Positions 3,819 to 64,000 of a stretch of DNA of 64,000 nucleotides are shown one piece after another. This DNA is from Octopus vulgaris (Eukaryota): contig OX597831.1 of the NCBI GenBank assembly GCA_951406725.2, forward strand, positions 83,886,001 to 83,950,000, in the 5' to 3' direction. The notes under the pieces were generated by a model. That model did no database searches. It was not told the DNA's origin and worked only from the letters and a program-made list of their open reading frames with translations. The position numbers were made by a program, and so were the translations under genes. Within the stretch, counting starts at the first letter, position 1. Every line of letters begins with the position of its first letter.

Positions 3819-3873
<55 letters not shown>

Positions 3874-3881
3874 CATTATTA

Positions 3882-4002
<121 letters not shown>

Positions 4003-4005
4003 CAT

Positions 4006-6121
4006 TCTATGTTTGACTTTTGCTTTATATTTGTACAAGTTGGCTCCAAGTCTCACCCAGAGACCTCAAGAGACAACAGGGTTGGAAGTTCATGTTGTTG
4101 TTATGCCTAGTGTGCCATATATTTGGGGGGTGGGGATGTTGTACTAATGAATGTCTAAAAAGAAAAAAAAAAAAAAAAAAGGTTTTTTTTTTTTTTTTTT
4201 TTTTAAACCGAAAATTATGTTTGTTTTAAACCTTGAGATTACATAGAGAGTATTTTGCGCAGGATATGAGCAGTTCCCATGAGCACTATCTTTTGAACTT
4301 CTGCCATTTTTGGGTTTCCTGGTATCTGAGTTAGGTAGCTATCAGCCCCTTTTGCTATCATTCCCAGGGCACCTATGACAACAGGTATTGTTTTAGTCTT
4401 CAGCTTCCACATTTTGCTGATTTCTATTTCAAGATCTTTATATTTGCTCAGTTTTTGGTAGGTCTTGACAGATACGTTTATATCGATTGGGACAGTCATA
4501 TCAATGAGGAGGCATGTTCTTTGTTTGAAGTTTTTCAATATGATGTCTGGCCTATTTGCATCTATCTTCCTGTCAGTTTGAATGGTGAAGTTCCAGAGGA
4601 GTGAGATGTGGTCATTTTCAAGCACTGGGGGTGGTTTGTGTTCCCACCAGTTTTTTTCATGGGGCAAATCCAGGTTTTTACAGATTACCCAGTGAATATA
4701 TTGTGCAGCTCTATCGTGCCTGTTGAGATACTCTGTAGGCGCTAGAAGACTGCACTTGGAGACCACATGGTCAATGGTTTCATTTTGTTGCTTGCATACA
4801 CGACACGTTGGACTGCTTCTGATCTTTAATATGTTGGCCTGGTAGTTTCTTGTTGGTAGGCATTGATCTTGAGCTGCTATGATAAACCCCTCTGTTTCAG
4901 ATTTTAAGCCAGAGGCCATTAGCCATTGATGGGTCAGGGCTTTGTCGATATCTGCATTATTCGCTCTCTTTGGGTATTTGCCATAGAGAGGTTTTTCTTG
5001 CCATTTATTATTCAGAATATCTAAGGCCGCAGTTTTGGCACGGGTTTTCATGCGCCTAGCTTTTTCTGTGCTTGTTTCTTGTATATCTATCTCCGAAATT
5101 GGTTGTATTCGGAATTCACTTAGATATTCCTTTGCCTGTATTGTGACTGAGTATGATGCTTTCTTGTTTTCATGTTTTGAGACAAGTTTTAGCATCCAGT
5201 CCTCAGAGTTTTTCAGGTAGGTGTCTAGGCCAATTGTAGCAATCTTCATTGTTATTGCCAGTTGCAAAAGACCACGGCCTCCCTCTTTTCTTGGCAGATA
5301 GAGTCGTTCTGTATCTGCCTTAGGGTGGTGCATTCTATGCATTGTCAACAGTTTCCTTATTTTTCTGTCGAGCTGACATATTTCAGTAATTGACCAGTTA
5401 ACAATATTGAAACTGTAAGTCACGACTGGTATAGCTAATGCATTGATTGCTTCGATCCTGTTTCTTGCATTCAGCTCTGTCTTGAGTATTGCTCTCACTC
5501 TTCGATAGCATTCTCTCCTGATCCTTTCCTTCATCTCTGAATGCCTTATTCCGTTCCCTTCAATTATCCCTAGGTACTTGTAGCTCTCCGCTGGGTCTAG
5601 TTCTTTTATGACATTCTGTTGGTCAAGGTTAACGTTAGATGTTTCTGTCATTTTTCCTTTGATAAAGGTAGCCTTTGCACATTTATCGAGGCCGAATTGC
5701 ATTCTGATGTCGTCACTGAATTGTTTGACTATCGCTAGTAAGCCCTTGAGTTGTTGATCATTTTTTGCAAAAAGCTTTAAATCATCCATGTAAACGAGAT
5801 GATTTATATTTTTATCAAACATTTTATACCCGTACTGCGCGTCATTGAGCAGCTTTGAGAGAGGTATTAAGGATAAACAAAAGAGGAGTGGTGACAGTGA
5901 GTCACCCTGGAAAATGCCACACGAAATTTTTACATCACCAGCATTTAGGAATTCACTGTCACTGTTCAGAGTTAGTGTGGTTCTCCATGATCTCATACTT
6001 ACAGTCAAGAAGTTTCGCAGAGTTGGTGCTATCTTATACATTTCAAGGCATTTTCTAATCCAGCTATGTGGTAGGCTATCAAAAGCCTTTTTATAGTCTA
6101 TCCAGGCTATTGATAAGTTTT
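4006..6121 (-). mobile_element. Young 5'-truncated R4/Dong-clade non-LTR retrotransposon in (TAA)n
   Basis: Open RT-ZnF-RLE frame plus 3' UTR ending ..GTCAAACATAGA-(AAT)n; 5' junction fused to (AAT)n. Confidence 0.93.
4239..6041 (-). CDS. R4/Dong ORF, C-terminal ~600 aa: RT (GIFQGDSLSP, YMDDLKL, YKYLG), CCHC finger (CRVC..H..C), restriction-like endonuclease (RHD, RPD..IDM..K..KY)
   Basis: Motifs read in the ORF track. The frame stays open upstream to ~6120 (LSIAWIDYKKAFDS), so the ATG is internal. Confidence 0.92.
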   Translation of the reverse strand: MYKIAPTLRNFLTVSMRSWRTTLTLNSDSEFLNAGDVKISCGIFQGDSLSPLLFCLSLIPLSKLLNDAQYGYKMFDKNINHLVYMDDLKLFAKNDQQLKGLLAIVKQFSDDIRMQFGLDKCAKATFIKGKMTETSNVNLDQQNVIKELDPAESYKYLGIIEGNGIRHSEMKERIRRECYRRVRAILKTELNARNRIEAINALAIPVVTYSFNIVNWSITEICQLDRKIRKLLTMHRMHHPKADTERLYLPRKEGGRGLLQLAITMKIATIGLDTYLKNSEDWMLKLVSKHENKKASYSVTIQAKEYLSEFRIQPISEIDIQETSTEKARRMKTRAKTAALDILNNKWQEKPLYGKYPKRANNADIDKALTHQWLMASGLKSETEGFIIAAQDQCLPTRNYQANILKIRSSPTCRVCKQQNETIDHVVSKCSLLAPTEYLNRHDRAAQYIHWVICKNLDLPHEKNWWEHKPPPVLENDHISLLWNFTIQTDRKIDANRPDIILKNFKQRTCLLIDMTVPIDINVSVKTYQKLSKYKDLEIEISKMWKLKTKTIPVVIGALGMIAKGADSYLTQIPGNPKMAEVQKIVLMGTAHILRKILSM

Positions 6122-6126
6122 TATTA

Positions 6127-6160
<34 letters not shown>

Positions 6161-6183
6161 CATTATTATTATTATTATTATTA

Positions 6184-8733
<2,550 letters not shown>

Positions 8734-9088: not shown

Positions 9089-9129
<41 letters not shown>

Positions 9130-9132
<3 letters not shown>

Positions 9133-10226
9133 ACAATTGAGGGTAAAATTAATTAAATAATCAATTTCACCAAGTGTTCAGTATGTAAAAGGACCATTTA
9201 AGGCGAATTCAAAATATTACATTATATAATTAGGGCTTAGTAAAATAAATTACTTTGCCACATACTGAACTTAGTAGAAATAGCAGCCAAAAAAAATTTT
9301 CTTAGCATTTCTACTACTTAAAGAAAATTTCTCTCAGATAATGTTTACTCTAGACAGCTCACGAAGGTTTGGGGGTAAATACAGAAAAATATCACAAGTA
9401 CATAGATCGTTTGAGTACGTCAACGTTTCAAGATTAGCCAAATAAATCAGCATTTCTTTCGTCAGCTCAAAATTTCTTAATTTGGATTTGGAAACACTAA
9501 AAGAAGGAACTTTACCTATCAGCGAACTTGTCGCTTCAGATGAACCACTCCAACTAAACAGTGTCAACAAATTCAAAATGCGCAGGCGTAAAATTCTGCA
9601 CTCCCCATTCCACCCACGTGGTCTATCTAGCAAACATTATATTTTAACCGCGAGAACCGAGGCAGTATGACCGAGAGAAATGAATTATAATATCAACAAT
9701 TGAGGGTAAAATTAATTAAATAATCAATTTCACCAAGTGTTCAGTATGTAAAAGGACCATTTAAGGCGAATTCAAAATATTACATTATATAATTAGGGCT
9801 TAGTAAAATAAATTACTTTGCCACATACTGAACTTAGTAGAAATAGCAGCCAAAAAAATTTTCTTAGCATTTCTACTACTTAAAGAAAATTTCTCTCAGA
9901 TAATGTTTACTCTAGACAGCTCACGAAGGTTTGGGGGTAAATACAGAAAAATATCACAAGTACATAGATCGTTTGAGTACGTCAACGTTTCAAGATTAGC
10001 CAAATAAATCAGCATTTCTTTCGTCAGCTCAAAATTTCTCGGTTCTCGCGGTTAAAATATAATGTTTGCTAGATAGACCACGTGGGTGGAATGGGGAGTG
10101 CAGAATTTTACGCCTGCGCATTTTGAATTTGTTGACACTGTTTAGTTGGAGTGGTTCATCTGAAGCGACAAGTTCGCTGATAGGTAAAGTTCCTTCTTTT
10201 TAGTGTTTCCAAATCCAAATTAAGAA
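9130..10226 (-). mobile_element. Retrozyme-like element: ~563-bp unit x1.6 plus inverted segment (10038-10226), 3' end in (TA)n
   Basis: Direct repeat starting 9131 and 9694; 10038-10226 is the reverse complement of ~9474-9661; one HHR per unit. Confidence 0.85.
9410..9471 (-). ncRNA. Type I hammerhead ribozyme (second copy 9972-10033)
   Basis: tttgag CTGACGA aaga..tctt GAA ACGT tg ACGT A ctcaaa: 6-bp stem I, canonical core, stem II, stem III, GUA site. Confidence 0.85.
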
Positions 10227-10254
10227 AGAGTGTGGTTGTTACTTTCTGTTGCTT

Positions 10255-28261: not shown

Positions 28262-30175
28262 GGTCCACCGTTTCAACTTTGAACCAAGACCCCGCCGAGC
28301 CAACCTCACTCGGGCCGAATCCATCGCCCTTCGCCACCTCCGCCGTCGTGATGACATTGTCATCAAACCGGCGGACAAAGGCGGGGCGGTGGTAGTGTGG
28401 CGCGCGGACCTATACAGGGAGGAAGCGCTCAACCAGCTTCAAAATCCCCTCTTCTATCGCCTCCTCCCCTCCGATCCCACCTCCTCCTACCAACAGCGAG
28501 TGTCCTCCACCATCCACGACCTCATCTCCTCCTCCGCTCTCCCCCTCACCGCCACCAACCTCATCGTCCGCACACCCCGCACCTCCACCATCTACTTCCT
28601 TCCCAAGATCCATAAACCCTCTAACCCTGGCCGTCCCATAGTCTCTGCCTGTAATTGCCCCACTGAACTCATCTCCCTATACCTCGACCGCATCCTGTCC
28701 CCCTTAGTCGCAGCCCTCCCATCCCACATACACGACACCAACCACGCCCTCCGTCTCTTCAATTCCTTTTCCTTCCCTTCCAGCCCCTCACACCTCCTCT
28801 TCACCTTAGATGTAAAATCCCTGTACACAGTGATTCCCCACAATGACGGTCTCCTAGCCCTCCAACACTTCCTCGACCGTCGTCCCGACCCCACCCCCAG
28901 CACCCCCACCCTTCTCCGTTTGGCTGAGCTCGTCCTCACCCTCAATTGCTTCACGTTCGCCGGGGAAACGTACCAACAGGTGTCCGGGGTCGCGATGGGA
29001 ACTAGGATGGGCCCCAATTTCGCCAATCTCTTTCTTGGCTACATTGAGGCCCAAGTGTTCTCCCAGTTCTCTGGGCCGACCCCCGAACTATACGGTCGCT
29101 ATATCGACGACTGTGTAGGTGCCACCTCCCTTTCCCGGGAACTTCTCGGCCAATTCATCTCTTTCCTTTCCAACTTTCACCCCTCTCTTCAATTCACCTC
29201 CACCATCTCCAACACCTCTGTCAACTTCCTTGACATCTCTCTCCGCATCGATCACCCCTCCAGCTCTCTCACCACCACCGCCTTCTTTAAACCTACGGAT
29301 TCCCACCTCTATCTCAACTTCTCTTCCTCCCACCCCTTCCACACCAAACGAGCCATCCCCTACTCCCAGTTCCTCCGCCTCCGACGTTTGTGCAGCCGCG
29401 ACCAGGATTTCGAGACCCAATCTCAATACCTGGCCCGCATGTTCAGAACTCCGAGGTTACCCACCCACACTCCTCTCTGATGCCCTCACCCGCGCCCGTC
29501 GCATCGACCGCACTACCGCCTTGTCTCCTTCCCCCCGCCCACCCCCGCCCACCCCCCAACCGCACCCCCTTCCCCCTCCTTTTCCACCCCTCTACCCTAC
29601 CCCTTCGTCGCAAGATACTACGTGCCTTCCGTCGCCTCCAGCTTGATCCCACCACCCGCCCCATTTTCCCTAACCCACCCCTGTCCTCTTTCAAACGAGC
29701 CCGCAATCTGCGTGACCTCCTGGTCCACAGCACCCTCTCCCCTTCCCCCTCAGCCCCACACGGATCATTCCCTTGCTCTAGATCCCGCTGCAACACTTGC
29801 CCCTTCATCACCAACACCACCGCTGTCACCGGCTCCAACCTGCATACTGTACGCATTAGGCACTCTTTTACGTGCACCTCGTCTGGCCTTATTTACTGCA
29901 TTAAATGCAACCTATGCGGGATGCTGTATGTAGGTCAGACGGGACGCCGGTTGTCCGACCGTTTCACTGAACACTTGAGGGACGTTCGCCTACACTCTTT
30001 TTCTCCCGTCTCACGCCACTTCCGCTCGGCCGGCCATTCCCGAGATGACATCTCAGTGTTTGGTCTCGCCCCCCACAATGGTCGCCCACTTTCCAGGCTC
30101 CACTTGGAGCAACGCTACATCTTCACCCTACAAACTACCACCCCACACGGACTTAACACAGCCCCCTCCTCTTGA
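28262..30175 (+). pseudogene. PLE reverse transcriptase + GIY-YIG endonuclease, one frameshift near 29445
   Basis: [47 protein letters not shown]; Cys linker CSRSRCNTC; LIYCIKC..YVGQT..R..EH..LEQ..GLN. Confidence 0.93.
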
Positions 30176-33160
30176 GACCGTTTTTTTTTTTTTTTTTTTT
30201 TTCCGGACACACCACCCACACACACCCACCCACCTACCTCCCACACGCCTGTTCACACACACATACGTAGACCCATCTACGTACATACATTCACACATTT
30301 AATCACACACACTTACAGACACACATGCACATACACACACACATACATACATACACACACGCATACATACTTACACACACACACACACACACAGACATAC
30401 ATACACACATACACACACACATACATACGCACATACATACACACACACTCACACACACACACCGCACGTACATACTTCACACACACACACATGCACACAT
30501 ACATGTAGGCACATACATACATACATACCCACACATGCACACCCGTACACTGAATGCACACACACATACACCTTTTTGCATCCAGGCAGCCCCCCCTCTT
30601 TTCTGCTTTCCGGTTTTGGCTGATGGATCCTCGGTTCCCGCGTAGCGGGGCGTTCGAGGGCCTTTGCGCTCGCGCGCCTTGGCGCGCGCTGGGGGCTCGG
30701 TCGGCCCCTTTGGGCTTGCGTTGCACTGCTTGTGCGTTGTGTGCGTGAGCGCGCTTCGTGTGTGTGGGCTTGCTTCGGATGTGCGCTTGCGTATGTTTGC
30801 ATACATACCCACACACTCGCATGCATCCCTACCCACATACATCCACGCACACCTACTCACACACACACATACACACACACACATACCCGCACACACACAC
30901 ACATACATACATACACACACATACCCACTTCAGACATACACACACACAGACATACACCCATACACCCACACTCACACGCATACACACACACACATACACA
31001 CGCACACGTACACATACACACACACACACACCCACATACATACATTACACTTGTATACACACACTTACATTCATACACACACACACCTACACAGCCATAC
31101 CCTCACTCAGACACACACATCTACCTACACACACACAAACACACACTGACACACACCCATACATACATACATCTACACACTCACGCCTACACACATACAT
31201 ACACACATACATAAACACACACACATACACATACACACACATACGCACACACGCATATACTTATACACATGCACACACACACACATACATACATACACCC
31301 ATATACATACACACACACATACCTACATACTCCTATACGCACATACATACACACAGACATACACACATACACACTCACACAAACATACACACACACATAC
31401 TTACACACACACTCACCTGCACGCGCACACACATGCATGACAAACACTCATACACTCACACTCACATACGCACACACCAACATAAACACGCACACGCACA
31501 CACACACCTACACTCCCACACACATACACACGCACCTACATACACACACGCACGCATACACACATACATTACACACGTACACACACACCTACATACACAT
31601 GCATACACACACACACACAAACATGCACGGACACACCCAGACATACATACATACACCTATATACACACGCCTACACACCTACATACACACACATATACAC
31701 ACGCCCACACAGCTACATACACACACATACATACACACATACACGGACACACCCATACATACTTACATACATACACCTATACACACACGCCTACACACCT
31801 ACACACACACATGCACACACACACACATGTACGCACATACACACACATATACGCACACACATATATACCCACACACATGCACACACACACACATACGCAC
31901 ATACATGCACGCATGCACACGCGCACACCTACACGCATACACACACACACACGCACGTACACATACATACATACACACACGCATACATACACCCATACAC
32001 ATACATGCATCCTACACACACATACATACACACTCACACATACATACACACACACGCACTCACTCACACACCTGTATGTTCGCGCACACACATGCACATA
32101 CACACACTTCCCCACACCCACACGTACATACATACACACTCATACACACATACACACACACACACACACACGGACATACATCTATGCACACACATATATA
32201 CACACATACTCACATACATTCATCGGACACACTGCCACCCAGACATACACACAGACACACTCACACATCCACACGCACACATACGTACGCGCACACTCGC
32301 AGGCTCGCGCACACACGCGTTTGCGCCGGTTCGCGCACGCATGCGCCCCGCATGCACCTCGCCCTTGGACCCGACGAGACCTCCCGCCCGTTCCTGGGAT
32401 GCCGCTTGTCGTTGGGTTTTCCCACGCCCGTCTCCGCGGGACCACTCTTCCATCTTCCCCTCCGCTGGAGTCCTTTTCCTACCCCCCCCTTTTTTTCGTT
32501 ACACACACGCGCACACATATACACACATTGCTTAAACATATACATCACTCTTACACACATTCAATCTACTCGCCACTAATACTACCACGACACTGGACAC
32601 ACACACACACTACTACTCAACACACGCTGGCACGCTACATACGCCCCCACCCCTTCCCCTCCCTCCCTTCCTCCTTCCTCCCTTTTCTCACTACTGACCT
32701 TTGTCTGCTATGCTGCTGCTATGCTGACCACCGTCTCGCCCTACCTCACACGCCTACACACAGACGCACACACTAACACTTACATATATTTTTTGTTTTT
32801 TTACCTCGCCTCACACACACACATACACACACGCACACGCACACACTCACACATACACACACATCTGTTGCGTTACCAACCTTGTCTCCACTCTTTTGCC
32901 TTTAAAAACCCACTTTGCTCTTGTTATCGTAAACATCCGCCTTTCACCATGTGCTACTCCTAACACCAGCCGTTTTTTTCTCTATCTCCGTTGCCCGCTC
33001 CGGGATCTTTCTTTCCTCTCTCTTCCTTCTTTATGTTTCCGACGAAGAGCTCCGCTCGAAACGTCATACCTCCCTGCTTCCATTTCCTGAGCGCCTATTA
33101 ATAATAATACTGTAATTGTTCCCTTGTTGTTGTTTTTTTGTTTCCCGTTTGGATTAAAAT
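28262..33160 (+). mobile_element. 5'-truncated Penelope-like element (Neptune-type) with CA-rich 3' region and pLTR, inserted in (TA)n
   Basis: RT+GIY-YIG ORF; the terminal ~390 bp recurs at 49188-49575 (-); HHR-like motif at 33035-33069. Confidence 0.85.
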
Positions 33161-37452: not shown

Positions 37453-37479
<27 letters not shown>

Positions 37480-37483
<4 letters not shown>

Positions 37484-40400
37484 AAATAATTAAAGGGCGG
37501 GCAGCAGGCTGCCTCGCCGCATACCGGAGGAATTAGAAATGGCAGTCAAAGACTGTTTTTTCCATTTTCTATAAGTGGATTTTCCAAATACGACGAACCC
37601 TGCGGTTCACATACGCAAAAAACGGAGTAGCAAATAAACGAAACCAATCTCTTACCGTTAATGATGAACATGTTTCTAGATCACAAGCACGAAAATAGCT
37701 TGATTTCCTTTATCAACACCATATTCGATAGATTTAGCAAATGCCACAGGCCCTCACTTCTGACCAAGCGACATCAGATAGTGGGGGGAGGTGTGCATAT
37801 GTTAAAACTAAGTAATGACTGAGAACGTAAATTTTCCCTCCAAAAATTCTGCCGTGTGTGCCGCCTGGCCGATCGCAATGGAATAAGAAATCCACATGGT
37901 AATACAATAAAAATGGTAAATAATTTTTCAGTGGTTTTTCATATAACCAACAATTATTTACCGGCAAAATTCCGGTATGTAAATATGACAAATTCATCGT
38001 CAGGAACTTCTGGAAAGTTCAGTATATAGTGAAAATAATTAAAGGGCGGGCAGCAGGCTGCCTCGCCGCATACCGGAGGAATTAGAAATGGCAGTCAAAG
38101 ACTGTTTTTTCCATTTTCTATAAGTGGATTTTCCAAATACGACGAACCCTGCGGTTCACATACGCAAAAAACGGAGTAGCAAATAAACGAAACCAATCTC
38201 TTACCGTTAATGATGAACATGTTTCTAGATCACAAGCACGAAAATAGCTTGATTTCCTTTATCAACACCATATTCGATAGATTTAGCAAATGCCACAGGC
38301 CCTCACTTCTGACCAAGCGACATCAGATAGTGGGGGAGGTGTGCATATGTTAAAACTAAGTAATGACTGAGAACGTAAATTTTCCCTCCAAAAATTCTGC
38401 CGTGTGCGCCGCCTGGCCGATCGCAATGGAATAAGAAGTCCACATGGTAATACAATAAAATGGTAAATAATTTTTCAGTGGTTTTTCATATAACCAACAA
38501 TTATTTACCGGCAAAATTCCGGTATGTAAATATGACAAATTCATCGTCAGGAACTTCTGGAAAGTTCAGTATATAGTGAAAATAATTAAAGGGCGGGCAG
38601 CAGGCTGCCTCGCCGCATACCGGAGGAATTAGAAATGGCAGTCAAAGACTGTTTTTTCCATCTTCTATAAGTGGATTTTCCAAATACGACGAACCCTGCG
38701 GTTCACATACGCAAAAAACGGAGTAGCAAATAAACGAAACCAATCTCTTACCGTTAATGATGAACATGTTTCTAGATCACAAGCACGAAAATAGCTTGAT
38801 TTCCTTTATCAACACCATATTCGATAGATTTAGCAAATGCCACAGGCCCTCACTTCTGACCAAGCGACATCAGATAGTGGGGGGAGGTGTGCATATGTTA
38901 AAACTAAGTAATGACTGAGAACGTAAATTTTCCCTCCAAAAATTCTGCCGTGTGTGCCGCCTGGCCGATCGCAATGGAATAAGAAATCCACATGGTAATA
39001 CAATAAAAATGGTAAATAATTTTTCAGTGGTTTTTCATATAACCAACAATTATTTACCGGCAAAATTCCGGTATGTAAATATGACAAATTCATCGTCAGG
39101 AACTTCTGGAAAGTTCAGTATATAGTGAAAATAATTAAAGGGCGGGCAGCAGGCTGCCTCGCCGCATACCGGAGGAATTAGAAATGGCAGTCAAAGACTG
39201 TTTTTTCCATTTTCTATAAGTGGATTTTCCAAATACGACGAACCCTGCGGTTCACATACGCAAAAAACGGAGTAGCAAATAAACGAAACCAATCTCTTAC
39301 CGTTAATGATGAACATGTTTCTAGATCACAAGCACGAAAATAGCTTGATTTCCTTTATCAACACCATATTCGATAGATTTAGCAAATGCCACAGGCCCTC
39401 ACTTCTGACCAAGCGACATCAGATAGTGGGGGGAGGTGTGCATATGTTAAAACTAAGTAATGACTGAGAACGTAAATTTTCCCTCCAAAAATTCTGCCGT
39501 GTGTGCCGCCTGGCCGATCGCAATGGAATAAGAAGTCCACATGGTAATACAATAAAAATGGTAAATAATTTTTCAGTGGTTTTTCATATAACCAACAATT
39601 ATTTACCGGCAAAATTCCGGTATGTAACTATGACAAATTCATCGTCAGGAACTTCTGGAAAGTTCAGTATATAGTGAAAATAATTAAAGGGCGGGCAGCA
39701 GGCTGCCTCGCCGCATACCGGAGGAATTAGAAATGGCAGTCAAAGACTGTTTTTTCCATTTTCTATAAGTGGATTTTCCAAATACGACGAACCCTGCGGT
39801 TCACATACGCAAAAAACGGAGTAGCAAATAAACGAAACCAATCTCTTACCGTTAATGATGAACATGTTTCTAGATCACAAGCACGAAAATAGCTTGATTT
39901 CCTTTATCAACACCATATTCGATAGATTTAGCAAATGCCACAGGCCCTCACTTCTGACCAAGCGACATCAGATAGTGGGGGGAGGTGTGCATATGTTAAA
40001 ACTAAGTAATGACTGAGAACGTAAATTTTCCCTCCAAAAATTCTGCCGTGTGCGCCGCCTGGCCGATCGCAATGGAATAAGAAGTCCACATGGTAATACA
40101 ATAAAAATGGTAAATAATTTTTCAGTGGTTTTTCATATAACCAACAATTATTTACCGGCAAAATTCCGGTATGTAAATATGACAAATTCATCGTCAGGAA
40201 CTTCTGGAAAGTTCAGTATATAGTGAAAATAATTAAAGGGCGGGCAGCAGGCTGCCTCGCCGCATACCGGAGGAATTAGAAATGGCAGTCAAAGACTGTT
40301 TTTTCCATTTTCTATAAGTGGATTTTCCAAATACGACGAACCCTGCGGTTCACATACGCAAAAAACGGAGTAGCAAATAAGCGAAACCAATCTCTTACCG

Positions 40401-41502
40401 TTAATGATGAACATGTTTCTAGATCACAAGCACGAAAATAGCTTGATTTCCTTTATCAACACCATATTCGATAGATTTAGCAAATGCCACAGGCCCTCAC
40501 TTCTGACCAAGCGACATCAGATAGTGGGGGGAGGTGTGCATATGTTAAAACTAAGTAATGACTGAGAACGTAAATTTTCCCTCCAAAAATTCTGCCGTGT
40601 GCGCCGCCTGGCCGATCGCAATGGAATAAGAAGTCCACATGGTAATACAATAAAAGTGGTAAATAATTTTTCAGTGGTTTTTCATATAACCAACAATTAT
40701 TTACCGGCAAAATTCCGGTATGTAAATATGACAAATTCATCGTCAGGAACTTCTGGAAAGTTCAGTATATAGTGAAAATAAAGGGCGGGCAGCAGGCTGC
40801 CTCGCCGCATACCGGAGGAATTAGAAATGGCAGTCAAAGACTGTTTTTTCCATTTTCTATAAGTGGATTTTCCAAATACGACGAACCCTGCGGTTCACAT
40901 ACGCAAAAAACGGAGTAGCAAATAAACGAAACCAATCTCTTACCGTTAATGATGAACATGTTTCTAGATCACAAGCACGAAAATAGCTTGATTTCCTTTA
41001 TCAACACCATATTCGATAGATTTAGCAAATGCCACAGGCCCTCACTTCTGACCAAGCGACATCAGATAGTGGGGGGAGGTGTGCATATGTTAAAACTAAG
41101 TAATGACTGAGAACGTAAATTTTCCCTCCAAAAATTCTGCCGTGTGCGCCGCCTGGCCGATCGCAATGGAATAAGAAGTCCACATGGTAATACAATAAAA
41201 ATGGTAAATAATTTTTCAGTGGTTTTTCATATAACCAACAATTATTTACCGGCAAAATTCCGGTATGTAAATATGACAAATTCATCGTCAGGAACTTCTG
41301 GAAAGTTCAGTATATAGTGAAAATAATTAAAGGGCGGGCAGCAGGCTGCCTCGCCGCATACCATGTGGACTTCTTATTCCATTGCGATCGGCCAGGCGGC
41401 GCACACGGCAGAATTTTTGGAGGGAAAATTTACGTTCTCAGTCATTACTTAGTTTTAACATATGCACACCTCCCCCCACTATCTGATGTCGCTTGGTCAG
41501 AA
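37480..41502 (-). mobile_element. Retrozyme-like tandem array: 7 x ~549 bp + 45-bp partial + inverted segment 41362-41502, within (TA)n
   Basis: Unit starts 37480, 38029, 38576, 39125, 39674, 40223, 40772, 41317; near-identical units; one HHR variant per unit. Confidence 0.9.
37661..37722 (-). ncRNA. Type I hammerhead, U3-A8 core variant (also at 38210, 38757, 39306, 39855, 40404, 40949)
   Basis: atggtg TTGATAA a-GGA-aat-CAAGC..GCTTG-tga-TCT-a GAA ACATGT T catcat. Confidence 0.7.
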
Positions 41503-42317: not shown

Positions 42318-44353
42318 GAAAAGAATATACATATACATATATATATATACATACATATACATATACATATACATATATATATATACATACATATACACAT
42401 ACATATACATATATATGCACATATACACACATATATACACATATAGATATTCATTTCTATTTCTTTAATTACCTGTGTATTTATTATGTTTGCAGGATCC
42501 ACTATTGTCATATGTTGTGGTGTGCGCTATTGCTCCATTCTAGTTTTCTATTCAGGCTAGGTTTATTTTCTATTATATGTGTAGCTTCTGTAATTTGTCT
42601 AATTGTTGCATCTGTTCTATGTGTTGACAATATCTTAATCTCTATGTTATTGATTGATCCCCCGTGTTCTTGTTCGGCGTGTTGGTACAGAATCGATGAG
42701 CTTTTACCTTCCTTGAGTTGTCTCCAATGTTCATTCACCCGCTCACCAATGCTTCTTGCAGTTTCCCCTACGTATGTTACTGTCTTGTTACTGCATCGTC
42801 CCTCTATACATCTTATACTATAGACCACATTTCTGGCTTTACAGTTCGTTTGTGGGCTAAATCTACATACAGTGCAATAGTTATCCGTACAGAGAGTTCT
42901 ACTAAAAGGATAGCTTCTACCAATTATAGATCTGATAGGGTTGCCTGGCTTTTCAACAACCTTAATTCTTAGTTTAAGTTTATCTAGGGTCCTTCTAAAG
43001 CGGTACGCTAGTTCACCTCCAGGGGTGGTGTCAACGAACATGACACTCTGGTATTTATGGCTATCATACCAAGAGTTGGCCTTCCCTATTTTCTTTTTTG
43101 TCCTTTCTATAGTGTTCCATGACTTGTTCCTATAGAGTGGGCAAATCCCATTCCTATCATTACATAATATATTATCAAATTTCTTCATGGCTCCTTTGTA
43201 TACTCTGATCCTTTCTTTATGGCTGTAACCTGAGAACTGCATGCGGTGAATGAAATACTGTATGTGTCTCTTTAATTCTGTAGGCTCGCACATGCGTGAC
43301 ACATTTCTCATTATTCTGATGAGGTCTGCCATCAAAATATTGAATTTGGCATTGCCCGCAATGGCTGTGTTCCGGTGGATCAGGTATTTTGAGGCCATAG
43401 GTTTTGCATAGTATGAATGAAGGATTTGGGTTTTATTTTTCACAATTTCTAGCCAGAGTTCAGTGTCTAGTACTGGTAGTCTATGGTTGGGGTGTTTAGT
43501 GGGGTAGTCTATTGTGACCTTAATACTCTGGTGGATGGAGTTAGCTATTTGCTGGATGCTCTCTATAGTATTAGTTTCTATTACTATATCAACAGTACCC
43601 TCTTGTGGGGGTGCCTTTACTACTATATTGATATCATCAACATAGCGAGAGTACATGTTTACGAGTATGGATTTCTGCAGTAGGCATTCTTTAAGCCTTC
43701 TGTCCCACCATACCATGAAGAGGTTGGCCACATCACCAGCGATACTAACACCGATGGCTGCCCCCACGTCCTGGGCATATATTTTATTATTAAATTTAAA
43801 TGTGTGGCCTTTTAGGGTAACTCTTATACTAGCTCCTAGTGCATGTGCGATCATTTTCTTTACCTGATGGACATTTGCGGGGCTCCGTATGGCTCTGGTC
43901 CATCCGCGCCATCTTTCTATATGTGTCTTCCTAGCCATAGAAGTAATTGTAGGCGGTCTACCTCTTAAACATCTACTGGGGCAGAAACTACTAAGATTAT
44001 GTTTATCTAAGTATTCACTATTATATGTCAGTCTAAGTAGGAGGCCCAGTTCTTCTGTGTCGACATTACAGAACTCCAACTGGCTCTCGTTGATCATCTC
44101 CACGCACTTCTCCACTGCAAAATCTACGTCAATCGATGGGTATAGGGATACCACATCCATGCTACCTACTATACATCCTGTCAAGTCACAAGTTTTGTTA
44201 CAGTCACTGATCCTGCTTAGGAGAACTTTGGCCGAAATAAGATTAAGATTAATGTAAAAAATAAATATCACTGAAGCAAAATAACACCAAATATATAGTG
44301 CGTGTGTTTTTATTGGCTAAACTGGCAATATGACCATTCCGAAATATAACAAT
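41799..44353 (-). mobile_element. 5'-truncated Penelope-like element with inverted pLTR segment (44221-44353)
   Basis: 44221-44353 is the reverse complement of ~41797-41929; 3' end in (TA)n; solo pLTR at ~56628-56855. Confidence 0.9.
42508..44220 (-). CDS. PLE RT + GIY-YIG endonuclease, uninterrupted but 5'-truncated
   Basis: SMDVVSLYPSI, GAAIGVSIAGDVANLFM, RYVDDI, LPVLD, Cys linker, VVYSIRC..YVGETAR..R..EH..TEA..LN. The first ~17 aa of the listed ORF come from the inverted pLTR. Confidence 0.92.
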   Translation of the reverse strand, partial: LSRISDCNKTCDLTGCIVGSMDVVSLYPSIDVDFAVEKCVEMINESQLEFCNVDTEELGLLLRLTYNSEYLDKHNLSSFCPSRCLRGRPPTITSMARKTHIERWRGWTRAIRSPANVHQVKKMIAHALGASIRVTLKGHTFKFNNKIYAQDVGAAIGVSIAGDVANLFMVWWDRRLKECLLQKSILVNMYSRYVDDINIVVKAPPQEGTVDIVIETNTIESIQQIANSIHQSIKVTIDYPTKHPNHRLPVLDTELWLEIVKNKTQILHSYYAKPMASKYLIHRNTAIAGNAKFNILMADLIRIMRNVSRMCEPTELKRHIQYFIHRMQFSGYSHKERIRVYKGAMKKFDNILCNDRNGICPLYRNKSWNTIERTKKKIGKANSWYDSHKYQSVMFVDTTPGGELAYRFRRTLDKLKLRIKVVEKPGNPIRSIIGRSYPFSRTLCTDNYCTVCRFSPQTNCKARNVVYSIRCIEGRCSNKTVTYVGETARSIGERVNEHWRQLKEGKSSSILYQHAEQEHGGSINNIEIKILSTHRTDATIRQITEATHIIENKPSLNRKLEWSNSAHHNI

Positions 44354-63013: not shown

Positions 63014-63424
63014 ATGAAGAATAGGAACTTATGGGTATAGATTTCATAATCACAGATCCATGATTAGTTTCCTACACAGAATAAATATATGGCCAACGAT
63101 GTGTGTGTATGTGTATACATAAATACATATATACGTATGTATTCTCCTGCCTGTTCTTTGCCACTCTCTTCTTCGTTCTTACTCGCTCTGCCTTCCATAC
63201 AAACAGAGAAACACATTCTTCACACACACGCATTCACTCAAAAACAAACACAAATGTGTTGCAGTGGATGGTAGTGCGTGTTCAATACACGCGCGTGCAT
63301 ACACATTCATGTGTGTGTTTGAAAGCGTGTGTGTGCCTGTGTGTTTGTCTCTATGTATGTATGAATGTACATACATGCATGTATGCATATATATGCGTAT
63401 ATATATATATATATATATATATAT

Positions 63425-64000
63425 AGCAATAATAATTCTCTAAAAGAGATATAGACAGTAACTGCTCGATAACATAAGGGACTAAAGCCATCTGAATATG
63501 GCTAGGGACAGGGCAGGGTGGTGGGGGTGTTACTGTTGCATTTAGCCCCAGGCGAACATCGACGTCACCAGAAAGGCCCGACACCGTCACGGTGTCCTTA
63601 ACCTGCAAAGGGAGGTAATTCCCCGATGAAGCGGAAACCACACACGGACCATGGTTTCAAGGTGTATTGCCTATCGTCGGCGTGTGGTAGGCTTCCGCTT
63701 CCTCGACGAATTCTCACTCTGCAGGATATTCATATATAGATTTTCAAGCAAAATACATTTGCTGATTTCGAAAATCTGTTCGAAAGCAATAATAATTCTC
63801 TAAAAGAGATATAGACAGTAACTGCTCGATAACATAAGGGACTAAAGCCATCTGAATATGGCTAGGGACAGGGCAGGGTGGTGGGGGTGTTACTGTTGCA
63901 TTTAGCCCCAGGCGAACATCGACGTCACCAGAAAGGCCCGACACCGTCACGGTGTCCTTAACCTGCAAAGGGAGGTAATTCCCCGATGAAGCGGAAACCA
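63425..64000 (-). mobile_element. Retrozyme-like 360-bp tandem repeat running off the window, 3' end in (TA)n
   Basis: Units start 63425 and 63785 and are identical over the overlap; many GC hairpins; HHR at 63641-63686. Confidence 0.85.
63641..63686 (-). ncRNA. Type I hammerhead, U4C core variant
   Basis: cacacg CCGACGA t-AGG..CCT-t GAA ACCATGGT C cgtgtg. Confidence 0.75.

Follow-up and report, generated by a model that had tools for sequence, protein, structure and literature searches.

A hammerhead tandem repeat of Octopus vulgaris with Penelope-like insertion ends, probably copied in trans from circular RNA

At the right edge of the analysed stretch of Octopus vulgaris DNA (hereafter the window; 64,000 nt, contig positions 83886001-83950000) we found a non-coding tandem repeat with a hammerhead motif. 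We read it, at a probability of about 0.65, as a recent insertion copied in trans by the protein of a Neptune-type Penelope-like retrotransposon, with a circular RNA monomer as the probable template. The repeat is an animal non-LTR retrozyme whose insertion ends speak directly for mobilisation by Penelope-like elements, and in this part of the reading we have high confidence. The retrozyme class and its proposed link to Penelope-like elements (PLEs) are already known; what is new is the direct evidence of mobilisation from end mapping, along with the series of ribozyme variants.

The window contains 1.6 units of the retrozyme only. The first full unit (63426-63785; the ribozyme sense is the minus strand) is 360 bp long with a GC content of 46.7%, and its left edge, the tail end of the insertion, follows directly on the (TA)n target microsatellite of the left flank (63399-63425). 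The partial second unit (63786-64000) is the same as the first at 215 of 215 bases, in agreement with the identical tandem units beside (TA)n that had been described in an earlier note on this DNA. That note had also proposed looking into the next stretch for the length of the array and for a 5' inversion. The inversion is present, as a 138-bp inverted arm at contig positions 83950006-83950143 (unit positions 178 to 44) followed by a second (TA)n; as for the array, the plus arm goes no further than position 220-222 of the second unit, 5-7 bases beyond the window end. The whole insertion, 718 bp within (TA)n, consists of unit 1-360, unit 1-222 and the inverted arm from 178 to 44.

Each unit carries on its minus strand a type I hammerhead set in an extended stem (63630-63700), with a 6-bp stem I CACACG/CGUGUG, the core CCGACGA, GAAA and GUC, a stem II AGG/CCU with a closing U.U mismatch and, as stem III, the palindrome ACCAUGGU. 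The core reads C3 C4 G5 A6 C7 G8 A9 at 63672-63678, which is the non-canonical U4C, and cleavage is predicted between 63647 and 63646. All parts of the U4C hammerhead named in the earlier note (stem I of 6 bp, CCGACGA, the palindrome and GUC) were thus recovered on the minus strand. An Rfam search of the unit gave no match at the gathering level nor at E<=10, hence motif and covariation, and no library match, underlie our hammerhead call. In 16 relatives 96.9% of the cells of the named hammerhead pairs are paired, with 0/500 shuffles as high, and pair 3-8 is found as C-G, U-A and U-G. It should be noted that shuffle controls on related sequences overstate significance, both here and for the helix treated below. 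Stem III is palindromic in the common form of each subfamily (ACCATGGT, ACCTAGGT, ACTATAGT, ACCGGT and ACCCGGGT), and such independent palindromes would be difficult to account for unless stem III forms between molecules; animal hammerheads have been described as acting in dimer mode (PMC4209133). Given the conserved pairs and palindromes in the relatives, U4C is a derived change that arose in the youngest subfamily while the scaffold of the putative ribozyme was kept.

The unit is strongly folded as a whole. The minimum free energy (MFE) of the minus strand is -123.4 kcal/mol (z -6.1, 0/100 shuffles as good); the plus strand is also well folded, less so than the minus strand (z -3.7). When folded as a circle, as the earlier note had suggested, the unit reaches -120.6 (z -5.4 against 40 shuffles) with 64% of its bases paired, and the predicted active hammerhead fold lies 8.8 kcal/mol above this circular MFE. 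The hairpins proposed in that note were borne out in part: the extended stem, GACACCG, AGCCAT and AGATTTTC are in the MFE fold, while the helix ACAGTAAC/GTTACTGT lies outside it. This helix pairs in 90.6% of cells in 12 aligned relatives, with one A-U to G-C change (2 sequences). The conserved region 63455-63537 (minus strand) holds the helix CAGUAAC/GUUACUG around an AGCCA/UGGCU hairpin together with the short-end site described below, and this structure may serve in protein binding and initiation. Pairing was weak (78%) for a pseudoknot UGGGG/CCCCA spanning the conserved helix, and we make no claim for it.

Animal non-LTR retrozymes have been described as tandem units of 150-450 bp with a type I hammerhead, GC under 50% and a highly paired fold (PMC7229834), and as having neither LTR nor ORF, with PLEs proposed as their mobilisers (PMC7229834). 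The octopus repeat has all of these features: dispersed tandem units within the range of ~150-450 bp, GC under 50%, a highly self-paired circle and in each unit a type I hammerhead, recognised by motif and covariation and with the non-canonical U4C. It has no coding capacity, the longest ATG ORF in the natural dimer being 50 aa, and no LTR, as the units adjoin (TA)n directly. The earlier interpretation as a viroid-like retrozyme therefore fits an animal non-LTR retrozyme in size, tandem layout, type I hammerhead and lack of coding capacity. An ORF scan detected no ORF with reverse transcriptase (RT) plus GIY-YIG in the unit; such ORFs occur elsewhere in the genome, hence the repeat is not itself an autonomous PLE.

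The family is large. A genome search with the unit gave at least 168 matches when 40 of 955 candidates were scored, on most large contigs. The genome has 3,621 occurrences of the 24-nt motif contained in the conserved helix region and 1,210 of the exact U4C core context, with 0 occurrences of either control. Full units in the search were 96-100%, mostly 99-100%, identical, and dispersed full units this similar fit recent movement, as the earlier note had supposed. Relatives span ~66% to 98% identity, with the subfamily cores CCGAYGA (the youngest), TTGATGA, TTGATAA, TTGACGA and CTGACGA, and CTGATGA in a distant family.

To map the ends we examined 40 scored loci with ~5 kb on each side; since these loci were picked for holding a full unit, arm lengths are inflated. 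In 27 of the 40 the insertion consists of two head-to-head arms with outer ends at unit position 1-4 and, inverted, at 43-49; the other 13 are not cleanly two-armed, 8 having the tail-end arm only and 5 being irregular. In a sample drawn by the motif, 9/17 distinct insertions were cleanly two-armed and 3 more were nearly so or had a stub second arm (read manually). Outer ends adjoin (TA)n, with at least four perfect TA, in 63 of the 67 cases that could be mapped, and inner ends vary between insertions. In sister subfamilies the short end sits after GTT, where 18 ends read CGTT followed by ATATAT as against CGTT followed by GTCGAG internally, which places the offset at 45-46 nt; both end sites are retained in subfamilies at just 66-72% identity. 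In the present copy the corresponding Penelope-type tail of ~45-46 nt (63426-63470, minus strand) is found at one outer end and missing from the other, and it would span the gap between two RT start sites, at unit position 1 and ~46. One non-microsatellite insertion, L049, has an 11-bp duplication. The family thus has an inverted 5' copy, a one-sided tail, a microsatellite target and, at L049, a duplication above 4 bp. An inverted copy plus a one-sided tail has been described for PLEs (PMC8557442, PMC3846280), and PLE protein has been reported in vitro to use two internal RT start sites and to nick both strands (PMC11167929).

Further we looked at what the arms tell about the template. A cut linear monomer yields at most ~221 nt from the tail start, yet two or more crossings of the cut site were counted in 31 of 71 arms, with 11 crossings in one of them. 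The arm of the present copy stops at unit position 220-222, right at the predicted cut, as would be expected from run-off at the ribozyme cut; however, inner ends are not clustered there (2/71 arms end within 217-226, with 2.0 expected), hence we dropped this explanation and take the coincidence as chance. Three sites segregate between insertions. Among variant sites within insertions 27 were common to all covering units (19 of them across both arms), 11 were partial and 97 private, and N7 was uniform in 25/25 multi-unit clusters (12 with C and 13 with T), counted by eye in the first 100 of the 1,210 cores. L023, which with 12 pieces is the longest array, combines several haplotypes in a mosaic, and one discordant unit each was seen in L057 and L049. 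The single haplotype usually present within an insertion fits one type of template molecule per insertion, either a circle or a uniform uncleaved multimer, and we consider a circle to be probably the main template.

The alternative on this point is that Penelope-like machinery copied an uncleaved linear multimer, with circles being minor and the U4C (and C3U) hammerhead weak or vestigial. U4C has been reported to lower activity in vitro considerably (PMC3088659), ribozyme cleavage was dispensable for insertion of an anole element (PMC11167929), and 8/9 Xenopus retrozyme dimers were found without cleavage (bioRxiv 10.64898/2026.07.22.740005). The core departs from the canonical CUGA in most sampled subfamilies, uniform arrays would equally come from uncleaved linear transcripts of uniform arrays, and the mosaic L023 suits such transcripts as well. 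However, copying of a linear array would only keep or lose units, so that arms of 9-11 units should need a source of gain; the rest of the core, pair 3-8 and the palindrome of stem III have been kept with compensating changes; and contigs of RNA-like runs (RNA status guessed) loop within a single variant. On balance we find this alternative rather doubtful, though the most serious of those considered here. A different objection is that the end anatomy equals that of an ordinary PLE insertion, so that the copies could be the 5'-truncated ends of a yet-unfound autonomous PLE with terminal 360-bp tandem repeats. Just 150 of 6,136 GIY-YIG candidates were scored, and further families can have escaped. 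Arms of up to 11 units never enter a shared ORF, though, the sequence beyond one-armed copies varies by locus, and the unit is absent from the autonomous families examined, which leaves this origin improbable. Slightly less probable still is satellite-like growth, in which a single terminal fragment inserts and the array expands locally by unequal crossover or slippage. Local growth has been discussed for vertebrate retrozymes (bioRxiv 10.64898/2026.07.22.740005) and could explain the mosaic L023; against it, both arms begin at fixed sites and have haplotypes in common, and the arrays, which are short and scattered over most large contigs, agree between loci at 99-100% identity.

The contigs referred to above were assembled contigs from 8 of 24 sequencing runs, none of which was recorded as RNA, their RNA status being guessed. 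Single contigs of 390-391 nt that loop from position 360 to 1 were present in 4/6 guessed-RNA runs and in 1/2 unlabelled runs. The fifth guessed-RNA run gave a 549-nt contig across the junction, the sixth was deeper and fragmented, and the other unlabelled run, which is very large, gave 541 fragments. These contigs lend weak support to expression; as assembled contigs they carry no information on strand, ends or circularity. In run X11 contigs of a related subfamily had a depth of 100-220 over window positions 63499-63573, against 8 for the present subfamily, and a sister family may be the dominant one in that run.

In order to find candidate partners for mobilisation in trans we searched for GIY-YIG loci, scoring 150 of 6,136 candidates along with follow-up searches, and obtained three active families, whose intact ORFs are 781, 775 and 884 aa long. 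The 781-aa and 775-aa ORFs contain RT and GIY-YIG with a cysteine linker and exist in many near-identical copies; both families sit in (TA)n with tails. From the cysteine linker and the target, and not from a tree, we would place the autonomous families in the Neptune clade. Two intact two-ORF elements of Neptune type were also observed (L127:1788-7040 and L177:3700-8900), with upstream frames of 479 and 454 aa from stop to stop, for which no convincing Pfam family was found.

All 17 two-armed copies of the 775-aa family have one tailed and one short end, in regions mostly chosen for inverted pairs, and the terminal repeat of this family contains a hammerhead motif with the stem II U.U and a palindromic stem III. 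Of its cores 44 were readable by eye, besides 4 unreadable rows, and 41 of these 44 are U4C. No hammerhead match was found in the terminal repeat of the 781-aa family by descriptor search. By manual reading the tail could measure ~32-42 nt in the 781-aa family and as much as ~52 nt in the 775-aa family, and since TA letters blur the ends, tail length favours the latter weakly. Blastn of the unit against the 781-aa and 775-aa elements gave no significant match (best E 0.076), nor did blastn against ~1.5 kb on each side of the 884-aa match and the other fetched GIY-YIG loci. A partner by homology was therefore not obtained from the three active families, and derivation from a specific PLE pLTR was not seen in these families or in the GIY-YIG loci fetched. 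As the unit has homology to no family compared, we infer a partner rather than identify one, and we give the 775-aa family an even chance of being it. A fourth lineage appears decayed (7 matches, no long ORF) and was rejected as partner. Retrozyme copies lie right beside a 775-aa end at L138 and L170, which may merely reflect the shared target and was set aside.

On the preferred reading, copying from a circle in trans, the order of events would be as follows. The array would be transcribed on the minus strand. Pairing of neighbouring hammerheads via the palindromic stem III would lead to cleavage, slowed by U4C, and a host ligase would then close the 360-nt monomer. A Penelope-like protein would bind the structure around unit positions 1-135, nick both (TA)n strands and prime two cDNAs at the two internal start sites; each cDNA would make anything between less than one turn and ~11 turns of the template before short microhomology joined the two head-to-head. 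The occurrence of U4C in the youngest subfamily and in the 775-aa family, along with U3.G8 or U3-A8 in other subfamilies, suggests possible selection for slowed ribozymes that spare their templates. Further, we speculate that the repeat is spreading at present as a circular-RNA parasite, that a Penelope-like enzyme copies the circle by twin-primed rolling-circle reverse transcription, with two cDNAs that start 45-46 nt apart on one circle and become the two arms, and that RNA structure rather than sequence is what the enzyme recognises in both parasite and host element. This wider proposal is tentative, and we hold it less likely to be right than wrong; if true, twin priming on a rolling circle would account at once for the Penelope tail, for the inversion and for how retrozyme arrays arise.

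Compared with known retrozymes, the octopus unit of 360 bp is close in size to those of mussel (350-390 bp; PMC7229834), and its hammerhead shares the U.U at the base of stem II with the axolotl HHR_Amex2 (PMC7229834). Cleavage and circles have been demonstrated for non-LTR retrozymes (PMC7229834), whereas in octopus both are predicted only and the youngest subfamily differs by its U4C core. The two-armed inversion, the tail offset and the (TA)n targeting of the octopus unit are not described in the accessible part of PMC7229834. A natural U4C hammerhead variant of a viroid has been reported as slower in vitro and sufficient in vivo (PMC3088659); in octopus the substitution is found in over a thousand genomic units and in a separate autonomous retrotransposon family.

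The octopus unit resembles EN+ PLEs, including Neptune, in its head-to-head inverted arms, one-sided tail and microsatellite targets (PMC8557442, PMC3846280), and also in palindromic stem III hammerheads thought to be dimeric and in internal RT start sites (PMC4209133, PMC11167929). It is unlike them in having no RT or endonuclease gene and in that both arms are multimers of the 360-bp unit; its tail of 45-46 nt compares with the 30-40 usually quoted for PLEs. The PLE hypothesis of retrozyme mobilisation has been restated (PMC11722881), and dependence on PLEs has recently been argued, mainly for vertebrates, from co-occurrence and pLTR homology (bioRxiv 10.64898/2026.07.22.740005). The present analysis agrees with that preprint on PLE dependence; in octopus the argument comes from the insertion ends, and a search for pLTR homology gave nothing in the families compared. 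The words 'tail', 'octopus', 'cephalopod' and 'U4C' are absent from the main text of the preprint. A literature search by title and abstract opening found no description of the present octopus family; subscription papers and supplements might contain the family or U4C variants.

These results bear on how retrozymes are copied in animals, on the origin of their arrays and on the role of the hammerhead in PLEs. The family is young and offers mapped start sites, natural cores (C3-G8/U4, C3-G8/C4, U3.G8 and U3-A8) on one scaffold and intact candidate partners; with these starts, core variants and partner proteins in one genome, each step is directly testable.

Several other repeats were observed. 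Window positions 37474-41502 hold, within (TA)n, a tandem array of seven units of 549 bp with 99% identity, and an inverted arm of 144 bp comes after them. A loose match to the hammerhead descriptor, with a U3-A8 core, was obtained in every unit, and the two ends are not ~45 nt apart. This array is possibly another retrozyme-like family. A repeat with a 564-bp period (9122-10227; 1.6 units) lies by (TA)n; it has an inverted arm of 190 bp, and its loose match to the hammerhead descriptor shows a canonical core. Among PLE sequences, a young truncated copy of the active family with the 884-aa ORF, which has a ~6.2-kb tandem period and a CA-rich 3' region, lies at ~28300-30300 (plus strand), and a divergent remnant of a Penelope-like RT and endonuclease, with 25-27% identity to the active families, at 42544-43830 (minus strand). 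At 3825-8437 a sequence of 2.3 kb is directly duplicated (92.7%), with (TTA)n tracts at the borders. Elsewhere in the genome, candidate U4C-type cores (CCGA) appeared in descriptor matches of other repeat families (L075:4483-4530, L093:200, L124:2782 and L035:7027). Finally, an unrelated-looking 361-bp two-armed tandem element in (TA)n at L082:5460-6600, with a U3-A8 hammerhead motif and a palindromic ACGCGT stem III, is by these features a further putative retrozyme family.
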